A stretch of DNA of 64,000 nucleotides, taken from a virus (taxonomy: Duplodnaviria > Caudoviricetes). The stretch lies in IMG/VR virus record IMGVR_UViG_3300037507_003370, positions 128,001 through 192,000 of that record, one strand, 5' to 3'. Each line of letters begins with the position of its first letter. Positions within the stretch are counted from its first letter, which is position 1. Below are positions 35,913-63,142 of the stretch, piece after piece. The position numbers were made by a program, and so were the translations under genes. The notes under the pieces were generated by a model, which was given only the letters and a program-made list of their open reading frames with translations, was not told the DNA's origin and made no database searches.

Positions 35913-36786
35913 TTATATTGTAACAGCTATATACGACGGTCTTCATGGAACTAGTCTTGGAGGAAGAGCATCCAGAGGAGAGCACTATAGACATAGCTTT
36001 AAATCAATAAGTAAGATTACTGATACCGAATATACAATATATACTAACGAGCATGATCCTATTAAAACATTTATGGTTGATAATATAAGTAATGTAAAAT
36101 ATGATTTAAAAACTTATGATCTAAACAATTCAGAGTATTCTGCAAAAATAAATAATATTAAAGATATAGAATCAACTAAATCTTCTTCTCGATGTATTGA
36201 ATTACAATATTCTAAATTTACGTGGATTGAATCTTTAGCAAATTTAATAAATGAAGAAGACTACATATATTGGTTTGATGCTGGGTTGTCTTATAGTGGA
36301 TTAATACCAGACAAGCATCTAGGCAATAAAGGATATCACGACTATAATTATTATTCTCCATTATTTAATAATCAATTTTTTAGTAATTTAATTTCATATA
36401 CGGATGAGTCTTTTTTTTGTATAGCAAAAGATAATGTTAACTTTTTTTGGGACGGAGGACTACCAGATAAATGGTATATAAATGGAAAAGATTGTTCTAA
36501 TCATATAATTGGTGGGCTATTTGGTGGAAAATCAAAAATAGTAAAGCAAGTCTGTTCATTATTTAGGTCTTTAGCAAATAATTTATTAGACGATGAAAAA
36601 AATTTATATAGCGAAGAGAATATTTTAACTGTTTTATATTATAATCATAAAGAATTATTTAAAACAAAAACTTTTGATATATGGTGGCATGAAAATAATA
36701 TTGTTGGCAATGTAGGAGAAGAAAGAGCAAAAGAACTACTATCTTCTACTAAAAGTTTTTATCATATACTTGAAGAGCTTCAGTGA
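35905..36786 (+). CDS. HtrL/YibB-like protein
   Basis: YSKF.W, YWFDAGL, IIGGLFGG, EENIL. Confidence 0.7.
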   Translation: MSNYIVTAIYDGLHGTSLGGRASRGEHYRHSFKSISKITDTEYTIYTNEHDPIKTFMVDNISNVKYDLKTYDLNNSEYSAKINNIKDIESTKSSSRCIELQYSKFTWIESLANLINEEDYIYWFDAGLSYSGLIPDKHLGNKGYHDYNYYSPLFNNQFFSNLISYTDESFFCIAKDNVNFFWDGGLPDKWYINGKDCSNHIIGGLFGGKSKIVKQVCSLFRSLANNLLDDEKNLYSEENILTVLYYNHKELFKTKTFDIWWHENNIVGNVGEERAKELLSSTKSFYHILEELQ

Positions 36787-37484
36787 CTAGTGTTTTCAAT
36801 TATCCAATCATAAATTGATGACACCTTCACATGTCCTGATATATCATCAAAATCACTGTCTGGCTTGCTGTCTGATGGAGATTTAACAATCGAGTTGATG
36901 CCTATTAGTTCACCAGTTTTTAAAAACAAGCCCCCACCGCTGTCACCAACAGCAGAGATGCCATTTAATTCTATGTTGGAGTTCGGATCGAATTTACAAA
37001 AAACAAGATCGCCCATTGTGCCAAAAATCTTATTATTTGCTGCTCTTTTTTTAAAATCATATTTTATTGATCCAACTTGTCCATCGCCGGTTTTTCCATA
37101 TCCTACAATTGTACATTCTTGATCTGTTTTTAGATCTTCTATATATAGTTCTGTTTTATTTTTAAATTCTGGAATTTCTACTTTTAACAAAGCAACATCA
37201 GAATTTTTATTTTTTATAATTTCTATTGGATTATATGATTGCCCATTAAATATAATATTAATATCTTTTTTATATTCAATAGAGTGTTTTGTTGTTAGTA
37301 TCCAATTATTATTCAATAATACTCCACTAGAAAAAGTAGAGCCAGTTTCAATTTTTAAAACATTATTGAATTTTTCTCCATACTCTATATATCTTTGATC
37401 GTCATATTTTTTATCTATTACTACTGCACTAGCTTCTGTTGTTACTATAAATAGTGCTAATAAAATTATAGATAAATATTTCAT
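36780..37484 (-). CDS. Trypsin-like (S1) serine protease with signal peptide
   Basis: Signal MKYLSIILLALFIVTTEASA; LTTKH, DVALL, GDSGGG. Confidence 0.85.
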   Translation of the reverse strand: MKYLSIILLALFIVTTEASAVVIDKKYDDQRYIEYGEKFNNVLKIETGSTFSSGVLLNNNWILTTKHSIEYKKDINIIFNGQSYNPIEIIKNKNSDVALLKVEIPEFKNKTELYIEDLKTDQECTIVGYGKTGDGQVGSIKYDFKKRAANNKIFGTMGDLVFCKFDPNSNIELNGISAVGDSGGGLFLKTGELIGINSIVKSPSDSKPDSDFDDISGHVKVSSIYDWIIENTSH

Positions 37485-38500
37485 AAAATTTTTGCAGCTA
37501 TTAGACATCCCCTAGCAACAGAATGCAGTGGGTCTTTTGCATGTTTAATTTGTTCAATTTTAATTGGAAATGAATTTTCTTTAATCTTTTTATTAAACGT
37601 TTCTATAAATCCTTTAGGTTGAGAAGTACCTCCAGATATTGCTATCGTTAATGGCTTCTTAAACTTTGGTAACATTTTATGGTCTTCTAATGCCGCACAT
37701 AACTGTTTTACCGTATAGTCTATTAATCTTTCATAATATGCCGATACCGCAGAGAGTATATGATTATCGTTCTTTTCTCCTATTGTGAAATCCCCATGCT
37801 CTTTCTCTGCTTGAACAACACTATCCTCTTCTCCTGTTGCGACTGCACTCATTCTATCTATCCAGTCCCCAGATTTTGTTGTTGAAAAAGATATTACTGG
37901 CTCTCCATTAAGCATTACGCATACATTTACCATACCAGCACCCCAAGACAGACCTATTCCCGTATAATTTTCTTCTGATAGTTCTGAATAGCACAGCGCC
38001 TCTGCTTCATATATTGCTTTTGCATTATATCCGCATTCTTTCAAAATATTTTTTACTAAATCCTCGTGGTATCCTACATTAAATTCTTCGTCTTCTTGAT
38101 CAACAGGCTGTGCAGGAATACAGAATACTAATTTTTCATTCATTACCTGAGAAATTCCCACAACTTCTTTCAGAATAAAAGATAGTATCTTTCTTGCATC
38201 TTTTTCTTTTGGTGACACAACGCCTCTAAACATTGGCCTTTTAGCGCTTTCATTTCTCTCTAACGCTTGATCTATTGCATCTTGACCCAACACAATAAAA
38301 GAACCATCTTGATCTTTTATAAATGTTTTCCCATTTAGTCCTTTTTGTATCATTGTATTGGCTATACTTGTTGCTGGTTTGATAGCATAAAAAGCATCTC
38401 TGAAATCTCTGTATTCAATAGAATTAATTCCATTGTCAGCCTCGTCTGGACTTTTAGCTAATACTATATAAGAGGTACCAACATCTAAGCCTTTAGCCAT
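37481..38500 (-). CDS. Actin-fold ATPase (MreB/ParM/Hsp70 superfamily)
   Basis: Phosphate-1 GLDVGTS, connect-1 YEAEA, phosphate-2 SWGAGMVN, adenosine ISGGTS, connect-2 SVARG. Confidence 0.8.
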   Translation of the reverse strand: MAKGLDVGTSYIVLAKSPDEADNGINSIEYRDFRDAFYAIKPATSIANTMIQKGLNGKTFIKDQDGSFIVLGQDAIDQALERNESAKRPMFRGVVSPKEKDARKILSFILKEVVGISQVMNEKLVFCIPAQPVDQEDEEFNVGYHEDLVKNILKECGYNAKAIYEAEALCYSELSEENYTGIGLSWGAGMVNVCVMLNGEPVISFSTTKSGDWIDRMSAVATGEEDSVVQAEKEHGDFTIGEKNDNHILSAVSAYYERLIDYTVKQLCAALEDHKMLPKFKKPLTIAISGGTSQPKGFIETFNKKIKENSFPIKIEQIKHAKDPLHSVARGCLIAAKIL

Positions 38501-38843
38501 TTGAATCTCCTTTTAAATTTTTTAGTTTATTGATATTATTATCAATATCATCTTCTATATATTGTGTTTTATATATATCGTCACAAAATTTAGTTACACC
38601 TTTTACATTTGTGTCGGTTACATATACAGTATCATCAATTAATATTTTGCTCATTTTTTTCTTATTATCTTTTGGAATAATATTTTTGATTTCATAATCA
38701 TTAGATTGTTTTTCTATCTTATGGCTATGGCTACTAATAGTTTCAGTATTTTTATTTTTTGCATATAAATATCCTATTGTTATTCCTAAATTAAATATAG
38801 TTATATAAACTAAAAATATCAACAATAAATCTATTGTATCCAT
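38493..38843 (-). CDS. Single-pass membrane protein
   Basis: N-terminal TM LLLIFLVYITIFNLGITIGYLY. Confidence 0.6.
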   Translation of the reverse strand: MDTIDLLLIFLVYITIFNLGITIGYLYAKNKNTETISSHSHKIEKQSNDYEIKNIIPKDNKKKMSKILIDDTVYVTDTNVKGVTKFCDDIYKTQYIEDDIDNNINKLKNLKGDSNG

Positions 38844-39754
38844 AATTTAAAATCACCAGGATTTATTATACCATATCCTTCGTATTTTTTATTATACGCA
38901 TAAACAGGATTTGATAGATGTATCGATCCTATTTTTAGTCTTTCAATATATTTATCATAATTCAAAATTATATTTCTATTTTTCATATAAGAACATAGTA
39001 AAGCAGCACATCCCGCAACAAATGGATTGCTCATACTTGTACCACTCATTGTGGCATAGCTATTATTTGGATAACAGCTGATTATATCATGTCCTGGAGC
39101 TAAAAAATCTAAAGTTTCCCCACTACATGTAAAACTTGTTCTATTCATAGTTTTATCTATAGCTCCAATACTAACTGTATTATTGTATTTTGCAGGGTAC
39201 ATTATATCAACATTTTCTCCACTATTACCAGCGGCACAAAATATTCCACAATTCTTTTTTGCTGCATAATTAATAGCATTTTCAAAAACTTTGCTATATA
39301 CAGAAGATCCTAGAGACATAGTAATAATATCAGCACCGTTATCTACTGCCCAATATATTGAATCAATAATCCATGAGTCCATTCCTGAGCCATCATCTCC
39401 AAGGCACTTTACTGGCATGATTTTAGCTTTTGGTGCAACTCCTACCATTCCTTTTCCATTATTTGACGCGGCTATTGTTCCAGCGACATGCGTTCCATGA
39501 CCACACCTATCAATTGGTGGACTATTTTTATCTACAAAATTTTTACCATCAACTAGGTTATCTTTCAAGTCTAAGTGATCTAAATCGCAGCCAGAATCTA
39601 AAACAGCAACAACCACATTTTCTCCCTGAGAATAATTCCATTGAGACACAACATTCAATACATCTAATTCCCAACCAATAAATTGAGAATCGTTTGGAGA
39701 CAATCCGTATATATGTTCTTCTGTATATGGAAGTAATTTAATTTTTTTATTCAT
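38831..39754 (-). CDS. Subtilisin-like (S8) serine protease
   Basis: VLDSG, GHGTHVAG, AAGN, SGTSMS; no obvious signal peptide or long propeptide. Confidence 0.95.
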   Translation of the reverse strand: MNKKIKLLPYTEEHIYGLSPNDSQFIGWELDVLNVVSQWNYSQGENVVVAVLDSGCDLDHLDLKDNLVDGKNFVDKNSPPIDRCGHGTHVAGTIAASNNGKGMVGVAPKAKIMPVKCLGDDGSGMDSWIIDSIYWAVDNGADIITMSLGSSVYSKVFENAINYAAKKNCGIFCAAGNSGENVDIMYPAKYNNTVSIGAIDKTMNRTSFTCSGETLDFLAPGHDIISCYPNNSYATMSGTSMSNPFVAGCAALLCSYMKNRNIILNYDKYIERLKIGSIHLSNPVYAYNKKYEGYGIINPGDFKLWIQ

Positions 39755-40538
39755 TTTCGTGTTTTTTTATTGTTTCTATTATCCATGGTTTAAAAGTTGA
39801 TATTCTAGTATGAGCACTCTCGTCTCCATAATTTGAATCTGGTTTTTTGTCTGTCGATGTTACGAACGAATTTATTCCAGCTAATTTTCCATCTATAAAT
39901 AGACCTCCTCCACTATCTCCGTGTGCTGGTAAAAATTCTAATATAGTTTGATTTTTTTTATTCTCAGTCATATCGCACATAAGCATATATTCATTTACAG
40001 ATATTATTCTATTTGTTCCAGCTCTTTTTTTTAAGTCAAAAGTTTTTGCTCCCGTTATCCCGGTGCCATACATTCCATAACCAGATATGCTGCATATCTT
40101 ATTTTCTTCTTTTTTATCTGAATATAATATTGGAAATTCATTAATTTCCTCTACTTTCGAAGATAATCTTCCTATAGCTATATCATTCATGCTCACTGGA
40201 ATATTTTCATTAAAATCTTTATGTATTATAATAAGATCCAAGTCATACCTTTTATTATCTTCTCCAATAACTATATACTGATCTTTACTACAGCTAATTA
40301 CATGAGCGGCTGTTAGTATCCATTTGGGTTTTATTAAAACGGCAGACGCTGAAATTTCAAGATTCTTTTCTTTAGGACTTTTTATGTTTCCATAGATTTT
40401 TACTATGGTTTTATATTTTGCAGCATGGTTTAAATATTTTGATTCATCTACATCATGTCTTATAGTTCCAGCACATAGAATTTTTGTGCTAATAATAACT
40501 ATTATAATCCATAGCCATTTATTTTTTGTTAGTAACAT
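39747..40538 (-). CDS. Trypsin-like (S1) serine protease with signal peptide
   Basis: Hydrophobic N-terminus then GTIRHD; WILTAAH, DIAI, GDSGGG. Confidence 0.9.
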   Translation of the reverse strand: MLLTKNKWLWIIIVIISTKILCAGTIRHDVDESKYLNHAAKYKTIVKIYGNIKSPKEKNLEISASAVLIKPKWILTAAHVISCSKDQYIVIGEDNKRYDLDLIIIHKDFNENIPVSMNDIAIGRLSSKVEEINEFPILYSDKKEENKICSISGYGMYGTGITGAKTFDLKKRAGTNRIISVNEYMLMCDMTENKKNQTILEFLPAHGDSGGGLFIDGKLAGINSFVTSTDKKPDSNYGDESAHTRISTFKPWIIETIKKHENE

Positions 40539-40560
40539 TTTATATCTCCAAGTTATTTTG

Positions 40561-40869
40561 CTATGGTCTTGTTTTTACTTTTTTAAAGTAATTTTCACAA
40601 TCTGATATTATATCTTTATTCCAGCTTTGATAATTCATTAAATGACCAAACGTAAAATGACATGGATCATCGCATAGAGTTATCAAATTTTCTAAATCTA
40701 ATTCCTTACTAGGGTCTAAATGAACTGGTACTATATGATGCACTTCTAATTTTTTATTTCTTCCACAAGCAGCGCAATTTGGATTGTTTTTTAAATGCTG
40801 TTTTCTAATTTTTGACCAATCTGGTGACCTTTCTGCAAATCTAATTTTTTTAAAAATTAATCCAAACAT
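40561..40869 (-). CDS. Small HNH endonuclease
   Basis: CAACG, EVHHIVP, NLITLC..PCH. Confidence 0.85.
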   Translation of the reverse strand: MFGLIFKKIRFAERSPDWSKIRKQHLKNNPNCAACGRNKKLEVHHIVPVHLDPSKELDLENLITLCDDPCHFTFGHLMNYQSWNKDIISDCENYFKKVKTRP

Positions 40870-41987: not shown

Positions 41988-42890
41988 TTACCTCATAGGG
42001 AAATTGCCTAGCACTCTACCTTTCTGTGTACGCATTACATATCCTTTTCTTATCATATACGGCTCTATACTGTTTTCTATGGTCTCAATAGCTATTCCAC
42101 TGATAGAAGATATGCTTTTTAACCCTAGCGGTGTTCCTCTATGTTTTTGTAAAACCTCAATATATAACCTATCATAGATATCAAAACCATTACTATCTAC
42201 ACCCTGATTTAGGAATACTTTATTTATGTCCTGTTCTTTATCCTGATGATATGAGGTATAGCTTTGATACCAATTTAATCTGGCATTAAGAATTCTAGGA
42301 GTACCCTTGCTTCTTTTAGCAATTTCTAATAAGTCAGATTCATTTATCATTAGTCCGAGCTTTTTTGCGTTCGACTCCGCTAGTTTAGCTAAGTCATTAT
42401 CGCTATAAAAGATCAAATGTTCTTTAATTTGAAACCTATCATAGAATGGCTGACTTAGATTTCCTCCAGTTGTTGTTGCTCCTATTAATGTAAAAGGAGG
42501 AATATCTATTTGCTCTGGCTCCTTTTCTAAAACTAGATTTAGAACAAAATCTTCCATAACAGGATACAAGAATTCTTCTACCACTATTGGTAGTCTATGT
42601 ATTTCATCTATAAAAAGAACAGAGTTTCTCGATATATTCATTAAATACGGTAAGATATTTTTTATTGCTCTAATATTAGCCGCATTAACGACATATATGT
42701 TTGCATTTAGCTCATTCGCTATAGCACTTGCCATAGTAGTTTTACCAAGCCCAGGAGGCCCGTCTATTAAAATATGCGGCATCGCATTGCCAGACTTTAA
42801 ACACCCTGACACAATGATCCTCATTCTCTCAACAACTTCTGATTGTCCAATAATATCATCAAATTTTGATGGCCTAACTATGTTCGACAT
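41988..42890 (-). CDS. ruvB: Holliday junction branch migration helicase RuvB
   Basis: RPSKFDDIIGQ, GPPGLGKTT, FIDEIHRL, GATT, DRF, GTPR, IEPY. Start MSNIV (SD GGAGA). Confidence 0.93.
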   Translation of the reverse strand: MSNIVRPSKFDDIIGQSEVVERMRIIVSGCLKSGNAMPHILIDGPPGLGKTTMASAIANELNANIYVVNAANIRAIKNILPYLMNISRNSVLFIDEIHRLPIVVEEFLYPVMEDFVLNLVLEKEPEQIDIPPFTLIGATTTGGNLSQPFYDRFQIKEHLIFYSDNDLAKLAESNAKKLGLMINESDLLEIAKRSKGTPRILNARLNWYQSYTSYHQDKEQDINKVFLNQGVDSNGFDIYDRLYIEVLQKHRGTPLGLKSISSISGIAIETIENSIEPYMIRKGYVMRTQKGRVLGNFPMR

Positions 42891-43251
42891 TTTGTTCTCC
42901 AATTTTTTTAAGTGCAATCTTCAATATTTGTACAGGATCTGTTATGTCATTTTCTTTTATTGCTTTTTCAACAGCATATGTTGCTTCTTGTTTTGAAAAA
43001 CCATAATTAAGCAATCCAGAAATTGCTTTCTTTATATAGTCTTTTTCATTTGTAATTACTGCGTTCTTTTTTGTTTTATATTTAATCTTGAAAGAATCTA
43101 CAGTTTTAACTTTCAATATTTTTTTACAGTCACATACGATTAAGAATTTGTCTGTTTTTGCTTCATGTATGGATAACCAATGGTTATATCCACAATTCGG
43201 GCATGAATATTTTAAATGTAAATCGTATTCAGTTGGCTTTAAATTTTTCAT
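42874..43251 (-). CDS. Zn-ribbon fused to RuvA C-terminal domain III
   Basis: N-terminal CPNC...CDC; C-terminal AISGLLNYGFSKQEATYAV...ILKIALKKI. Confidence 0.7.
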   Translation of the reverse strand: MKNLKPTEYDLHLKYSCPNCGYNHWLSIHEAKTDKFLIVCDCKKILKVKTVDSFKIKYKTKKNAVITNEKDYIKKAISGLLNYGFSKQEATYAVEKAIKENDITDPVQILKIALKKIGEQNVEHS

Positions 43252-43642
43252 CTGGGTTATCTTTTATCCAAAAAATAAAATCATTCGACTCATCATCAAA
43301 ACCACTATCCAATACGCCCTTATTGACTAAATTATTTAGCATATTGCTTATCATTCTAGAATTTAGGCTATCTATAAATTTTGAAAACTGAATATCCGAT
43401 ATGATATATCTTATGTCATTTGTTTTTTTGTTTTTTTGTTGCTTGACATATTCTTTTAATAAAACTTCTGATTCTTCATAAGAAAGTATTTTGTTTAGTT
43501 CGCCTTCTTCCTCAGAAGTTATTTCATAGATAGAATCATTCTGCTTGATATCTCCAAATGTATTAAATACTAAAATTCTAGTAGAATTAATAAATTGCTC
43601 GATATCTTTAATGACATACCACCCATCATCTGTAGAACTCAT
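43229..43642 (-). CDS. Hypothetical protein (137 aa)
   Basis: Coupled ORF, SD AGGA. Confidence 0.6.
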   Translation of the reverse strand: MSSTDDGWYVIKDIEQFINSTRILVFNTFGDIKQNDSIYEITSEEEGELNKILSYEESEVLLKEYVKQQKNKKTNDIRYIISDIQFSKFIDSLNSRMISNMLNNLVNKGVLDSGFDDESNDFIFWIKDNPDEKFKAN

Positions 43643-43650
43643 GATATTTC

Positions 43651-44064
43651 CTAATTAAGTATCTCGTACAATCCCTTATAATATTTTGGCTGCTGTAAAA
43701 AATACCCAGCATGACTTTGTAGATGTTTGACATATTCACTCGCTAATTTGTTTTGAATAAAATGTTTCTTTTTCCATATTCCTTCGTTCCAATAGTTGTT
43801 CCCCAAGTACAGGGACTTTTTATCATCCGCTGTACTGGAGAACGAACTATTCACAGGTAACGCAATCGGAGAAAATCCATCTGGAAGTAAAGGAGTATTA
43901 TAGTTAGGTAGGTTCTTCAACGCATCCTCTATAACTTCCTTAGTTATCCATTTATATTCTATCTTATTGAGCAGACTATCCATATATTTCTTGATCCATT
44001 CAGTATCTATCTGAAAGTAGAATTTGTAGGGATCATTATCTTCTGGATTGTCAGGATTGTTCAT
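43651..44064 (-). CDS. Hypothetical protein (137 aa)
   Basis: Coupled ORF. Confidence 0.55.
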   Translation of the reverse strand: MNNPDNPEDNDPYKFYFQIDTEWIKKYMDSLLNKIEYKWITKEVIEDALKNLPNYNTPLLPDGFSPIALPVNSSFSSTADDKKSLYLGNNYWNEGIWKKKHFIQNKLASEYVKHLQSHAGYFLQQPKYYKGLYEILN

Positions 44065-44067
44065 AAT

Positions 44068-45246
44068 TTAACCCACACAAAACTTATCGCTAATCTGGCT
44101 TGCCAAGTCTCTGGCAGCACCAGAAAGGAATCGGTTGTTGCTGAAATACAACGCTGTGGATGCTTGGTTGAGGTACTCGACCACCGTTTTTAAAAGTTTG
44201 GCCTGCTCCCCACTCAAAACTAAACCACTGTCACCAGCATGAGAAGGCAATACTGGCGACGGATCACCATAAGCCTTTTCAAACTTGTTGTTGTAAGCCT
44301 TTGAAAGATTCTCGTTGTAACTATTTGGAGTCTCGTTATAAGACGCCCAAGCACTACTCATAGAGTTCTTTTGACCACAACAATCAGAGGTACTATTTGT
44401 ATAGACTGCCCTTTGAGTATTAAGTTCATTCAGAATTTTTGCAGCAGCATCAACCGTTACAGGAAGTCCAGTAGCATCAGACTTCTTATAGGTTTTTCTC
44501 CACTGGTCAAACCAAGCATCACTAGTAGCATTAGGAACAATAGTTACTGTTGCTGGTTGACCATTTAATGCAGAGATTAAATCTTGAACATTAACGCTCT
44601 GACCAGTTGAGCCATTTAGAATACTGGTAAAGTAAGATGCTTTCTTTTCCCAGCACTTACGCCACCAAGTATAAGGAACTCGATAAATCTGATTAATCTT
44701 GATGGCTCGTGCATCTCCACCAAAGTAATTTACCAGTTTCTTCTGAATACCATTCCATGTGGTTTGATTAACTAGAGTTCGACTTTGATCATCCATAATC
44801 CAATAAATCTGATAACCATTACGAGTATCAACTACCCAACTTGGCTTAACAGCAAAGTTATTGATCTTATCAAGAGCAGACTGCTTAAACTTCATAACCT
44901 CTTTTGAGGGCAGATAGTTTCCAGCAGCGTCTCGTCCAGCATCAATATCTACAAAACAACAAGCAATGGTATTGATAGCATACTGCTTTCGTCCACCGTT
45001 AACATAGAAGTAAGCATCAGAGTTGCTATTCTCATTAGCATTACGAACCTCAACAAGATCATTAGTATGCTTCATGCTACTAATTTTTCTGCGAGGATCT
45101 CCATTATAACAAAAAATATGACCAGCATTTAGATTAAAAGAATTTAGAAACTGCTCTTGCAGTCCATTCCACGAATTAGCATAACGCTTTTCAGCACTGC
45201 TATTAGCCTTATCATACGGATTAAAACCAAGTTCCATCTTAAACAT
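44068..45246 (-). CDS. RepB-like primase (AEP fold) with C-terminal extension
   Basis: FVDIDAG (DxD), PSWVVDTRNGYQIYW (motif II, H>Q), GGD....NQIYRVP. Confidence 0.65.
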   Translation of the reverse strand: MFKMELGFNPYDKANSSAEKRYANSWNGLQEQFLNSFNLNAGHIFCYNGDPRRKISSMKHTNDLVEVRNANENSNSDAYFYVNGGRKQYAINTIACCFVDIDAGRDAAGNYLPSKEVMKFKQSALDKINNFAVKPSWVVDTRNGYQIYWIMDDQSRTLVNQTTWNGIQKKLVNYFGGDARAIKINQIYRVPYTWWRKCWEKKASYFTSILNGSTGQSVNVQDLISALNGQPATVTIVPNATSDAWFDQWRKTYKKSDATGLPVTVDAAAKILNELNTQRAVYTNSTSDCCGQKNSMSSAWASYNETPNSYNENLSKAYNNKFEKAYGDPSPVLPSHAGDSGLVLSGEQAKLLKTVVEYLNQASTALYFSNNRFLSGAARDLASQISDKFCVG

Positions 45247-53733: not shown

Positions 53734-53827
53734 TTTTTTTCCTAAATATTTTTTGCCAGTTTTGATCCCATACTTTATAAGTTACACTTTTTGGCCTTGG
53801 TTTACTTCCTTTTCCATTTTGGCTCAT
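53702..53827 (-). CDS. Micro-protein (41 aa; not in ORF track)
   Basis: MSQNGKGSKPRPKSVTYKVWDQNWQKIF...; ATGA overlap with the upstream stop. Confidence 0.65.
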   Translation of the reverse strand: MSQNGKGSKPRPKSVTYKVWDQNWQKIFRKKNDSKRNSKKT

Positions 53828-54447
53828 ATTAATTTACCAGACTTTTTTAAATTATCAATAGCCCACAATGGCTGTAAGTTACTATAATGAAAACATAACT
53901 TTTGTTGTTCTATATCGGTTAAGTCAAAAGAGCAACAAGGTTTTATATGATCTATATGCCATTGTCCATAATTATCCCAAGTCATACCATCTGCAAATAA
54001 CCTCTCTAAATATAGTTTCAAATGTTCCCAAGAGCAACCTGTTAAGTTATAAGAGGTACTATTTTTTGAACCTCTAGACAAAGCCATTCTAATACGATTA
54101 CTAATAATAGTTCTTAGTCTAAAATTAACATTGTTTTTTCTTTTTTGTTGCCTGTATTTATTAATTTTATCTCGATATTTTTCTCTATATTTTTTAGCAT
54201 TTATAGCAACTTTATCTGGATTCTCTTGTCCCCATTTTTTTCTACTTGCATTTAAATTTTCTTTATGTTTAGATCTGTATTCTTGTTGTTGTTTTTTTAT
54301 TTTCTTTTTATTCTTTTGTCTTCTTATAGAATTGTATTCTTTATGACAAGTTTTACAATATGGTGATTTACCATCTTTTGATGCCGTTTGATTATGAAAA
54401 TTTATTAATTCTTGTTTTTTATTACATTTTACACATTGTTTTTTCAT
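53824..54447 (-). CDS. HNH-family homing endonuclease-like protein
   Basis: Start MKKQCVKC; Zn-finger N-terminus, basic helix, GMTWDNYGQWHIDHIKP...YSNLQPLWA.DN..K. Confidence 0.85.
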   Translation of the reverse strand: MKKQCVKCNKKQELINFHNQTASKDGKSPYCKTCHKEYNSIRRQKNKKKIKKQQQEYRSKHKENLNASRKKWGQENPDKVAINAKKYREKYRDKINKYRQQKRKNNVNFRLRTIISNRIRMALSRGSKNSTSYNLTGCSWEHLKLYLERLFADGMTWDNYGQWHIDHIKPCCSFDLTDIEQQKLCFHYSNLQPLWAIDNLKKSGKLI

Positions 54448-54472
54448 GGTATATATCTCTCTTCGCTTATTG

Positions 54473-54480
54473 TATACACC
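54473..54480 (-). promoter_or_regulatory. RGTGTAT-type motif
   Basis: GGTGTATA about 25 nt upstream of ATG 54447. Confidence 0.45.
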
Positions 54481-54490
54481 AAAACTAGAA

Positions 54491-55192
54491 TCAATTTTCA
54501 AAAACATATGACCAATAACGAGAATCTGTCTTATTCTGTTTTGCGTCCCAAAAAATAGATCGTGCAATGTATGCTGGGACGCCAATTTTACCACAATTAA
54601 CACTCCAGTGTCTTTCCATTTTTTTATATAGATCAAGACCCTTTTTGGATTGGTATGTCAATGTTTTCATGCCATAAAGTTCAAGCATATGAGTATCACC
54701 ACAAAAGACTCTACATTCATTAGGATGAGATTGTTCAAGAGCGAAAGAAACCTTAGCAGTTCCGAGTCCAGAAATATTATTGACAATCTGATCTCTTTTC
54801 TTAACATGGTACTTCTTAGTTGTAAGATAAAACTCTTTGGGATTTGCCCAGAATTTATCCTTAAAACCCCAAATGAACTTTGTGCGGTTATTGTAAAGTC
54901 CACATCCACTATTCTTGATCTTTTCTCTTAAAAGTTCTTTATCATCTAGCCATTCACTAAAATTCTTAATAGCGTTATATCCGGCAACATTAGATTTCCA
55001 AGTAGTATGGACGCTCATGTAGGCAAAAAGATATCTACGAAAAATTTCATCATCACTATTTGGTCGAATACTTTCCCAATATTCCTTATAACTAACTACC
55101 TTATCTTTGGGAAAGTTCTTAAAAAAATCGTCAGCCTTGCTAGTATCCATAGCAATATCTTGAACAGGAATAACAGAGTTCTCAACGATCAT
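54491..55192 (-). CDS. HhH-GPD DNA glycosylase-like protein (Ogg-like)
   Basis: IVNNISGLGTAKVSFAL (HhH) followed by CGDTHM (Asp-x-His). Confidence 0.6.
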   Translation of the reverse strand: MIVENSVIPVQDIAMDTSKADDFFKNFPKDKVVSYKEYWESIRPNSDDEIFRRYLFAYMSVHTTWKSNVAGYNAIKNFSEWLDDKELLREKIKNSGCGLYNNRTKFIWGFKDKFWANPKEFYLTTKKYHVKKRDQIVNNISGLGTAKVSFALEQSHPNECRVFCGDTHMLELYGMKTLTYQSKKGLDLYKKMERHWSVNCGKIGVPAYIARSIFWDAKQNKTDSRYWSYVFEN

Positions 55193-55228
55193 GGGTTTCT
55201 CCAAAAGTGTTTCAAGCGTTATGCTAAC

Positions 55229-59617: not shown

Positions 59618-60436
59618 TTAAAAATAATATTTATCTATCATATCTAAAAATAAATTTAGTCCCATAAATTCTTCAAACGTATTCTTTAGTCCCCACAAAT
59701 GTAATATTTTATGTTCTTTTAGTCTGTGTCTTATTCCAATCTCACCTTTTGCTGTTATGGATCCTGGCACTAAAACTGGTAAATTTTGTTTATTCATTTT
59801 TTTTGCAATAATCGAGGGTAATATATATTGCTCTAAAAATACTGATGTTTTCCAATTATATCCGTCTGTCTTTAGTGTTGATAAAAATTCGGTTATTTCA
59901 TTATTATGATTGTTAATACCTGTTATTAGATGATCTATGCTGTTTTTAATAGTAATATAGTCCGTACCGCCAAAAATGCCAAAATTATAACATTGAGCAA
60001 TATCATTATCTATATTAAACCACTCGTCTATTTTGTCTTTAGGCAACTTACTAAAAAAACAAGTTTTCATCCACGGTTCGTGATGCAAAGTTATAAAAGG
60101 TTCATTTTTATATGGCTGTATAATATCTTCTACTAAAAATAAATCTAAATCCACATGATAAAATGGCTCATTAACTAATAAACAAGAAACAAGTTTAGTA
60201 ACAGACCAAAAGTCAAAAGTATTTGGTAATTCATAATCTTTTAAATCTATTATTCTTATATCATCATATGGTATGTGTTTAAAATAAGGTAGGCTTTTTG
60301 TATCAGTATATAATATGGTAGTATATTGATGCTTTTTTAAGAACTTGTTTGATAATTCTGCTTGCTTACTTGCTGCTGAAATATTAGCTCTGATGCTAGA
60401 TGTATCGTTAGGGAAAAAGCTATGTATTGTTATCAT
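59618..60436 (-). CDS. Glycosyltransferase-like protein (DUF6734-like)
   Basis: WSVTKL, HVDLDLFL, YNFGIFGG, FLEQY, HLWG. Confidence 0.6.
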   Translation of the reverse strand: MITIHSFFPNDTSSIRANISAASKQAELSNKFLKKHQYTTILYTDTKSLPYFKHIPYDDIRIIDLKDYELPNTFDFWSVTKLVSCLLVNEPFYHVDLDLFLVEDIIQPYKNEPFITLHHEPWMKTCFFSKLPKDKIDEWFNIDNDIAQCYNFGIFGGTDYITIKNSIDHLITGINNHNNEITEFLSTLKTDGYNWKTSVFLEQYILPSIIAKKMNKQNLPVLVPGSITAKGEIGIRHRLKEHKILHLWGLKNTFEEFMGLNLFLDMIDKYYF

Positions 60437-60782
60437 TTTGCTGGTTCCTATTTTTTGCCATGATTAAATAGTTTACAGCCTTAATTACACCGGTTAAATT
60501 GTCATCAAGTTTACCTATGCCAGTATTACACCTATCACAGAGCCAACCTCTAAAAGAATCATCAGAATGATCGTGATCCAAGCACCATTTTAATGGTATT
60601 TTTTTACAACACTCACAAAGTTCTGGTTTTGGTGGTGCTTTTTTATGAAGTTTACCACGAACTTTAGTTTGTTTTTTTACACACTTTTTGCATCTGCTAT
60701 CCAGATTGTCTTTATACATAGTGTGTTTAGGAAAACTTCCTTTGTTTTTCCTTTTACCGCAATATGAACAAATTTTTCTCAT
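60420..60782 (-). CDS. Endonuclease VII-like protein
   Basis: CECC, LDHDH....RGWLCDRCNTGIG. Confidence 0.85.
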   Translation of the reverse strand: MRKICSYCGKRKNKGSFPKHTMYKDNLDSRCKKCVKKQTKVRGKLHKKAPPKPELCECCKKIPLKWCLDHDHSDDSFRGWLCDRCNTGIGKLDDNLTGVIKAVNYLIMAKNRNQQNDNNT

Positions 60783-62596: not shown

Positions 62597-62769
62597 ACAG
62601 AATCAGTATTCTTTAATTTCTGAATTTCAATTTGATACTGTTCTATCTTTTTATACATTTCTTGACATGAAACACAAAAATCAGAGGCTATGTATGCTTT
62701 GCAGTCATGTATTTTATCCTCAAGATCCCGTATCTTTCTTTTTGTTTCTTCGTTTAATTGGTTTGTCAT
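62593..62769 (-). CDS. Small hypothetical protein (C..C motif)
   Basis: Start probably MTNQ. Confidence 0.5.
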   Translation of the reverse strand: MTNQLNEETKRKIRDLEDKIHDCKAYIASDFCVSCQEMYKKIEQYQIEIQKLKNTDSV

Positions 62770-63142
62770 TTGATTTTCTCTTCTTGGTTGTGGAACTAGT
62801 TTCTTGATTTGCCCAAAAAACCATCTCATTACTTTCATTATCCCAAGCACATTCTACTAATCCTTTAGCAGCGAGTTTTGCTAATCCAACATTATGAATC
62901 CATGTTACAGTATGTTCATAAATTTTTTCATTAGCATCCTCATTGAGCAAAGGACGCTCTTTATTATCAAACCCAACACATTCGGTTATAACAAGATTAA
63001 TCATTTGTCCGATACTAATAAAATCATCAAGATTTTCATCGTAAGACTGTGATAGGCTTTTAGCAGCAGCCTCACGCATTTCTGTGACATATCCTTCAAG
63101 ATCAGTAATGGCATAAACGTCGCCCATGTTCATACTCTCCAA
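62720..63142 (-). CDS. Hypothetical protein (140 aa)
   Basis: SD GGAG; ECAWD...FW motif also seen in 43229-43642 (SGFD...FW). Confidence 0.6.
   Translation of the reverse strand: MESMNMGDVYAITDLEGYVTEMREAAAKSLSQSYDENLDDFISIGQMINLVITECVGFDNKERPLLNEDANEKIYEHTVTWIHNVGLAKLAAKGLVECAWDNESNEMVFWANQETSSTTKKRKSNDKPIKRRNKKKDTGS

Follow-up and report, generated by a model that had tools for sequence, protein, structure and literature searches.

A zinc ribbon joined to RuvA domain III is encoded directly upstream of a diverged RuvB in a clade of aquatic phages

In the window analysed here, a stretch of 64,000 nucleotides from a large AT-rich genome of an uncultured phage found in water, a gene of 125 codons (42874..43251, minus strand) overlaps the gene of an intact RuvB and encodes a protein made of a zinc ribbon, a linker and domain III of RuvA, as recognised by profiles, an AlphaFold model and a structure match. 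We refer to this protein as the hybrid. The identity of its domains, its linkage to ruvB, the intact motor, the surrounding gene inventory and the repeated absence of the hybrid among relatives are direct observations. We hold it somewhat better than an even bet that the hybrid serves, in recombination-dependent replication, as an accessory that anchors or activates the RuvB encoded beside it.

The original prediction had described a Cys zinc ribbon and a C-terminal RuvA domain III-like bundle in a gene overlapping ruvB, and this architecture is confirmed, with a Cys4 ribbon and an overlap of 17 nt. In the AlphaFold model (pLDDT 93, pTM 0.53), a small beta ribbon and a three-helix bundle are both confident and form two independent domains that are not packed together. 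The bundle (residues 70-123; 42883..43044, minus strand) matches RuvA_C by profile and by structure. The last 57 residues of the hybrid score 25.7 bits against RuvA_C (PF07499), where the Pfam cut-off is 24, and against the whole-RuvA model TIGR00084 the hybrid reaches 22.2 bits of the required 85, through its C-terminal part only. The best PDB match of the hybrid family profile is domain III of RuvA in 1IXS, a RuvA-RuvB complex (E 4e-4), with six further RuvA sequences among the 15 matches, and a profile of domain III only gives the same picture. Foldseek with the hybrid ranks RuvA first. In VIA-align, the top four matches of the bundle to RuvA domain III have Z scores of 8.6, 7.7, 7.6 and 7.6, all ahead of the best UBA-type structure (Z 6.2), and RuvA domain III superposes on the bundle with an rmsd of 1.4-1.7 Å over 48-51 residues. 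Among 71 hybrid domain sequences, only 15 match RuvA_C at E<=0.1, and Pfam UBA (PF00627) matches two at E 0.06, below its cut-off. Modest individual scores are to be expected for a domain of about 50 residues, and four methods (Pfam, profile search, Foldseek and VIA-align) agree in placing RuvA best; the bundle is RuvA domain III, and the generic UBA-like bundle that the original prediction had named as its refutation is not what was found. The OB-fold and HhH domains, also predicted to be missing, are detected neither by profiles nor in the AlphaFold model, and the 125 residues leave no space for either. Judged from its sequence, the hybrid lies outside the RuvA family, since domains I and II fail, and it probably works like the C-terminal half of RuvA.

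The residues of the bundle that correspond to the RuvB contacts of RuvA are retained. Hybrid residues L80, Y83, G84, F85 and I109 align with L167, L170, G171, Y172 and L199 of E. coli RuvA (for Y172 and L199, in what we take to be the E. coli numbering). Mutation of L167 and L170 in E. coli RuvA abolishes RuvB activity in vivo (PMC2628435). Across 146 hybrids, L80 is Leu in 87%, position 83 is Tyr, Phe or Leu in 92%, G84 is kept in 98% and position 85 is Phe or Tyr in 96%, and the four cysteines C17, C20, C40 and C42 are 99-100% conserved; conservation is at least 90% for these cysteines and for H24, W25, Y15, G84 and E89. The key residues are 87-100% conserved though the proteins are just 28-56% identical.

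The N-terminal zinc ribbon (residues 1-60; 43072..43251, minus strand) is defined by family conservation, with the pattern CxxC-x19-CxC and an invariant W25, and it is basic, with a family median net charge of +7. A variable linker (43045..43071, minus strand) separates it from the bundle, as seen in the alignment and in a dip of pLDDT in the AlphaFold model; it has 9 aa in the window and 5-70 residues in the homologs, with a median of 19. Structural relatives of the ribbon are weak matches, namely 7zok (GltJ/AgmX) at E 0.055 and 2nb9 (ZitP) at a probability of 0.72 over 41 columns, together with Zn_ribbon_4 clusters at an Atlas TM of about 0.6. The ribbons of GltJ/AgmX and ZitP (7ZOK, 2NB9) bind protein partners (PMC11135422), and they share with the hybrid a small N-terminal Cys4 ribbon that is followed by a flexible linker. 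Unlike in these MJ0042-type ribbons, the second cysteine pair of the hybrid is CxC and not CxxC, the similarity lies below significance, and the ribbon is fused, in a soluble protein, to RuvA domain III. The model is confident for residues 1-11 and 48-60, which nevertheless form no sheet within the chain and may pair with another subunit. As to the ligand, the basic charge slightly favours DNA while the fold relatives favour protein, and we regard DNA as slightly more likely.

The RuvB of the window (300 aa; 41988..42890, minus strand) is intact, as originally predicted: the RuvB_N, lid and RuvB_C domains are present, and so are Walker A and B, sensor 1, the Arg finger, sensor 2 and the arginines of the winged-helix wing. 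Its most likely start is the ATG at 42890, on which the gene callers agree and from which the 17-nt overlap follows; a longer frame from TTG 42917 is not shared by relatives and was rejected. The protein passes NCBIfam NF000868 (306, cut-off 282) and falls short of the TIGR00635 cut-off (276.5 against 299). Four scans of IMG/VR yield 158 distinct phage RuvBs that are at least 61% identical to the window RuvB, while identity to 75 bacterial RuvBs is 32-40%, the bacterial set being drawn from four phyla with Planctomycetota and most phyla left out. In a tree with these bacterial sequences, the phage RuvBs form one clade with full support. No genuine RuvB of this clade was found among GenBank phage records, whose RuvB matches are all less than 40% identical and bacterial-looking. 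By motifs, family models and tree, the phage protein is placed as a member of the RuvB family in a diverged phage subfamily.

The divergence touches the parts that would meet RuvA. Helix alpha3 (residues 75-86; 42633..42668, minus strand), which is half of the RuvA-docking surface, is remodelled, with a phage consensus that differs from bacterial RuvB. The presensor-1 beta-hairpin (residues 115-131; 42498..42548, minus strand) is 4 residues shorter than the bacterial one; over the phage clade the hairpin region has 21, 26 or 28 residues, while it has 25 in 75/75 bacterial sequences. The equivalent of the hairpin residue I150 is I128, invariant in the phage clade, while that of I148 is E126, a Glu in 91-100% of phage RuvBs at a position hydrophobic in 75/75 bacterial ones, and the bacterial hairpin tip motif is lost in the phages. 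The catalytic, trans-acting Glu-Asp and DNA-gripping residues show essentially no variation across 159 phage sequences, whether or not the hybrid accompanies them. Elsewhere in the protein, near-invariant bacterial arginines are replaced at residues 141, 150 and 158 by Ser/Thr, Tyr and His in 159/159 phage sequences, so the motor may be retuned, and R22, R74, K77 and Y82 are invariant in the phage clade only.

We then present an overall view of the hybrid among the relatives. The family recovered by an exhaustive HMMER search falls into 296 clusters at 50% identity, while a word-based search for homologs of this one protein gives 2 matches. The hybrid is found directly upstream of ruvB in 128 of 158 distinct relatives, and in 85% of these 128 it overlaps ruvB; such a family, with 128 distinct loci in the same slot, argues that the gene is not a chance ORF. 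Every hybrid locus checked has ruvB next to it. This covers the RuvB-anchored loci and five look-ups anchored on the hybrid, the alignment being too variable for a scan of loci. Longer fused forms of 323-2000 aa were not found, which is weak evidence, and the best 120 ribbon matches above 131 aa are all of 131-163 aa. The remaining 30 of the 158 relatives lack the hybrid and keep ruvB with every catalytic residue, and they include three genomes complete by terminal repeats (G007, G121 and G124). A relocated copy was found in none of 12 records of hybrid-less genomes with the full profile, which did find its positive control; with a domain III-only profile there was no convincing match in seven, only two fragments at E 0.01-0.02 inside unrelated long ORFs. 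Relatives with and without the hybrid are intermingled on the RuvB tree, with at least six changes forced by well-supported branches in a set of 63 sequences and 14 separate hybrid-less clades among 159. The tree is unrooted, and repeated loss from one fixed slot appears simpler than repeated gain. Two peculiar sets of loci were also met. In one relative, ruvB ends after 90 codons and unrelated sequence follows (L098:4389-4658); the same hybrid protein stands before a continuing ruvB in L099, so the former is probably a chimeric assembly. In addition, four bacterial MAGs of different phyla (L088-L091) carry the phage cluster, and each MAG also has a bacterial ruvB of its own; the clusters are probably phage contigs binned in error and could mislead annotation based on ruvB.

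The repeated absence of the hybrid bears on docking. In bacteria, alpha3 and the presensor-1 hairpin of RuvB form a hydrophobic surface to which RuvA domain III binds; the domain anchors the RuvB ring and serves as its nucleotide-exchange factor (PMC9477746). A rewritten phage surface could by itself mean that docking is lost, and the natural losses of the hybrid were therefore used as a test. The docking surface was fixed beforehand from PMC9477746 and excluded from the tree, and changes were counted by parsimony. The surface takes 100 changes on hybrid-less branches and 359 on hybrid-bearing ones, and the rest of RuvB takes 528 and 2577, which is an acceleration of the surface on hybrid-less branches with an odds ratio of 1.31-1.39 (p 0.008-0.03; p 0.04 by window permutation; p 0.025-0.074 without three gappy columns). 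Two genes upstream show no acceleration on hybrid-less branches. Hydrophobic-to-polar changes, compared between hybrid-less and hybrid-bearing branches, number 8 against 9 on the surface and 11 against 66 elsewhere, with an odds ratio of about 5 and p 0.002-0.017 over six column definitions; M84, L119 and L121 account for most of those on the surface, which are spread over seven separate clades. The support is moderate, since this second test was chosen with the columns already in view and since events counted by parsimony are partly dependent on each other. The relaxation in hybrid-less lineages fits a RuvB surface that is kept hydrophobic by the hybrid, and the loss of hydrophobicity argues against use of host RuvA there.

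A predicted complex of domain III with the phage RuvB points the same way with a weak pass, scoring 0.54 with a best control of 0.00. At least 76% of the contacts agree between runs and the pLDDT of the partner is at least 79. Of 80 solved pairs 58 attain the mark, as do 2 of 110 mismatched ones, and scores of at most 0.60 hold just 7 solved pairs together with both passing mismatches. The prediction may also reflect memory, since the like complex 1IXS is already solved, and the geometry must differ from bacteria, given the shortened hairpin and the Glu at the I148 equivalent. Overall, we consider that the hybrid probably binds the phage RuvB. The proposal that a RuvB-recruiting handle has been placed on another module is in this way partly upheld, by the domain III, its retained contact residues and the relaxed RuvB surface where the hybrid is missing, and weakly by the complex prediction.

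The genome setting concerns the pathway. The window encodes rIIA/rIIB-like proteins, an ATP-dependent ligase, a class II ribonucleotide reductase, many glycosyltransferases and, not adjacent to ruvB, a T4-type endonuclease VII (60420..60782, minus strand), which is the likely junction resolvase of the phage. Close relatives with terminal repeats in IMG/VR are 187-238 kb long, and the absence of ruvA and ruvC was judged from the 64-kb window and the relatives. The search for ruvA and ruvC that had been proposed, made on relatives, finds the RuvA OB fold (RuvA_N, PF01330) in none of 15 related genomes, 13 of which are at least 90% complete, and RuvC in none of five complete relatives; in the latter HHH_5 (PF14520) and RusA are also missing (0/5 each), and TIGR00084 has no match in five hybrid-less relatives. 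The hybrid thus stands where no full ruvA is found in complete or near-complete relatives, but "instead of RuvA", as originally worded, goes too far if an obligate partner is meant, since RuvB persists in 30 of 158 relatives without it. RecA/UvsX and endonuclease VII are present in all five complete relatives, while an SF2 helicase of UvsW type is found in none with two models (ResIII and Helicase_C), which suggests that RuvB takes the UvsW-type role. The original prediction had suggested that the motor may act on another substrate; this inventory points to ordinary recombination junctions as the substrate of the phage RuvB.

The most constant neighbour of ruvB is U137, a 137-aa acidic protein (43229..43642, minus strand; net charge -9 against +7 of the ribbon) whose gene overlaps that of the hybrid by 23 nt. 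It is a candidate partner, found beside ruvB in 159/159 distinct loci, and where the hybrid is absent it abuts ruvB, within 56 nt. Fold searches give weak winged-helix hints and no clear match, which is not proof of a new fold. A paralog of 140 aa lies near endonuclease VII (62720-63142, minus strand; profile probability 95.7%, E 1e-8), and together with U137 it makes up a phage family that is unannotated and has two members in each genome. A second 137-aa protein, which is uncharacterised (43651..44064, minus strand), is in the same gene run as U137 and ruvB in 156/159 loci. Next to it, a 392-aa protein (44068-45246, minus strand) is weakly RepB/primase-like in its N-terminal part (PHROG primase, E 1.5e-4), and its gene lies between rIIB and the ruvB cluster in 48/80 loci. 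Downstream of ruvB, a conserved run (36780-40869, minus strand) encodes a small HNH protein, trypsin-like proteases, a subtilase, a membrane-anchored protein and a volactin-type actin (PF25216). Further away, an 8-oxoguanine glycosylase-like HhH protein (PF22175) is encoded beside the DNA ligase and is followed by an overlapping HNH homing endonuclease-like ORF (54491-55204 and 53824-54636, minus strand). A promoter scan is at chance level.

From these observations we infer the binding of the hybrid to RuvB, its activating effect, its role in the pathway and the ligand of the ribbon. The phage RuvB would work as an active hexamer on dsDNA and power the branch migration of phage recombination, which is the job of UvsW in T4, in a pathway where RecA/UvsX would invade, RuvB would migrate and endonuclease VII would cut. 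Like domain III of RuvA, that of the hybrid would dock on the presensor-1 hairpin and alpha3, tethering the ring and speeding nucleotide exchange. The basic ribbon would grip something fixed, with DNA near the junction a slightly more likely candidate than a protein, and the hybrid would improve the motor without being essential to it. Against this stand the 60-residue ribbon, which cannot give the four-fold junction platform of RuvA, and its closest fold relatives, which bind proteins. A less probable reading is that the ribbon binds a protein (for example U137, endonuclease VII or a part of the replisome), the hybrid being an adaptor from that protein to the motor, and that U137 is perhaps what actually loads RuvB or serves as its stator. 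The nearest ribbon structures, the constant place of U137, its opposite charge and its overlapping gene speak for this, but the ribbon matches are weak (E 0.055), and U137 is not relaxed when the hybrid is missing, has no clear fold and has its paralog far from ruvB; moreover, the gene order from rII to ruvB is conserved throughout, so the adjacency may be inertia. RuvB stays intact in lineages that lack the hybrid, so that it must be targeted there by another factor or by none, and bacterial RuvB hexamers can form on duplex DNA without RuvA (bioRxiv 10.1101/2022.09.22.509074). It is conceivable, at rather less than even chances, that the phage RuvB is a RuvA-independent motor loaded by U137 or by itself, with the hybrid as a detachable module for exchange and anchoring whose interface is orthogonal to host RuvAB.

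The same docking and relaxation evidence would also suit a brake, in which a free domain III fills the docking surface of RuvB and would damp or time the motor. Domain III of RuvA, when isolated, can act as a competitor that inhibits branch migration, and dispensability fits a regulator; the conserved ribbon and flexible linker, however, mirror the layout of anchor, linker and domain III in RuvA, and a phage RuvA with which the hybrid could compete is missing, which makes a brake improbable. Hijack or inhibition of host RuvB, which the original prediction had offered as its alternative, would mean that the hybrid blocks or redirects host RuvAB in infection. The bacterial-type contacts of its domain III, which resembles that of bacterial RuvA, and the diverged hairpin of the phage RuvB could be read so, but a hybrid that is never seen without phage ruvB in the loci checked, and usually overlaps it, and a phage RuvB surface that tracks the hybrid and relaxes once it is gone render this very unlikely. 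Least probable is that the bundle is just a UBA-like domain of generic kind, or what is left of a decaying RuvA, with the phage RuvB using host RuvA or nothing. Few RuvA_C matches (15/71), frequent absence and UBA folds that follow at Z about 6 are in its favour, yet RuvA comes top by all four methods, key residues are held in very divergent proteins, and the hydrophobicity lost in hybrid-less RuvBs argues against host RuvA at that surface.

The phage pair of hybrid and RuvB resembles the bacterial RuvA-RuvB system (1IXR/1IXS, the 7PBL series and 7X7Q; PMC9477746, PMC10071043) in the catalytic and DNA-gripping motifs of the AAA+ motor, in a partner gene directly upstream and in a domain III that sits on a flexible linker with its RuvB contacts kept. 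It differs in that a zinc ribbon takes the place of the OB and HhH domains, which serve junction binding and the tetramer, that the partner is dispensable and RuvC missing, and that the phage RuvB has a rewritten alpha3 and a hairpin either 4 residues shorter or lengthened, never of bacterial length. With T4, where UvsX, UvsW and endonuclease VII act, the phages share a recombinase and endonuclease VII, and recombination-dependent replication needs a branch-migration motor. The SF2 enzymes UvsW of T4 and D10 of T5 perform branch migration (PMC5180179), while the five complete relatives are without an SF2 helicase and their candidate motor is the RuvB ring. In a survey of 224 jumbo phages, RuvC was not coupled to a RuvB-like ATPase (PMC7824862), and ruv genes are not mentioned in the moraphage paper. 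We found no published description of the hybrid-RuvB arrangement in the literature covered, most subscription journals lying outside its scope.

With UvsW and D10 as the other two, the phage RuvB would be a third way for phages to achieve branch migration. RuvB has been regarded as a cellular motor that needs the RuvA tetramer to find junctions and to have a point to push against. Here, in a widespread clade of aquatic phages, RuvB is strongly constrained without the junction-binding domains of RuvA, and sometimes without any remnant of RuvA. The hybrid is a natural construct with domain III only, which could test the anchoring and nucleotide-exchange roles proposed for this domain in PMC9477746, and the clade offers paired natural variants with and without it. 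If the motor is indeed independent of RuvA, these phages would be a natural experiment that parts the role of RuvA as a junction platform from its role in activating the motor.
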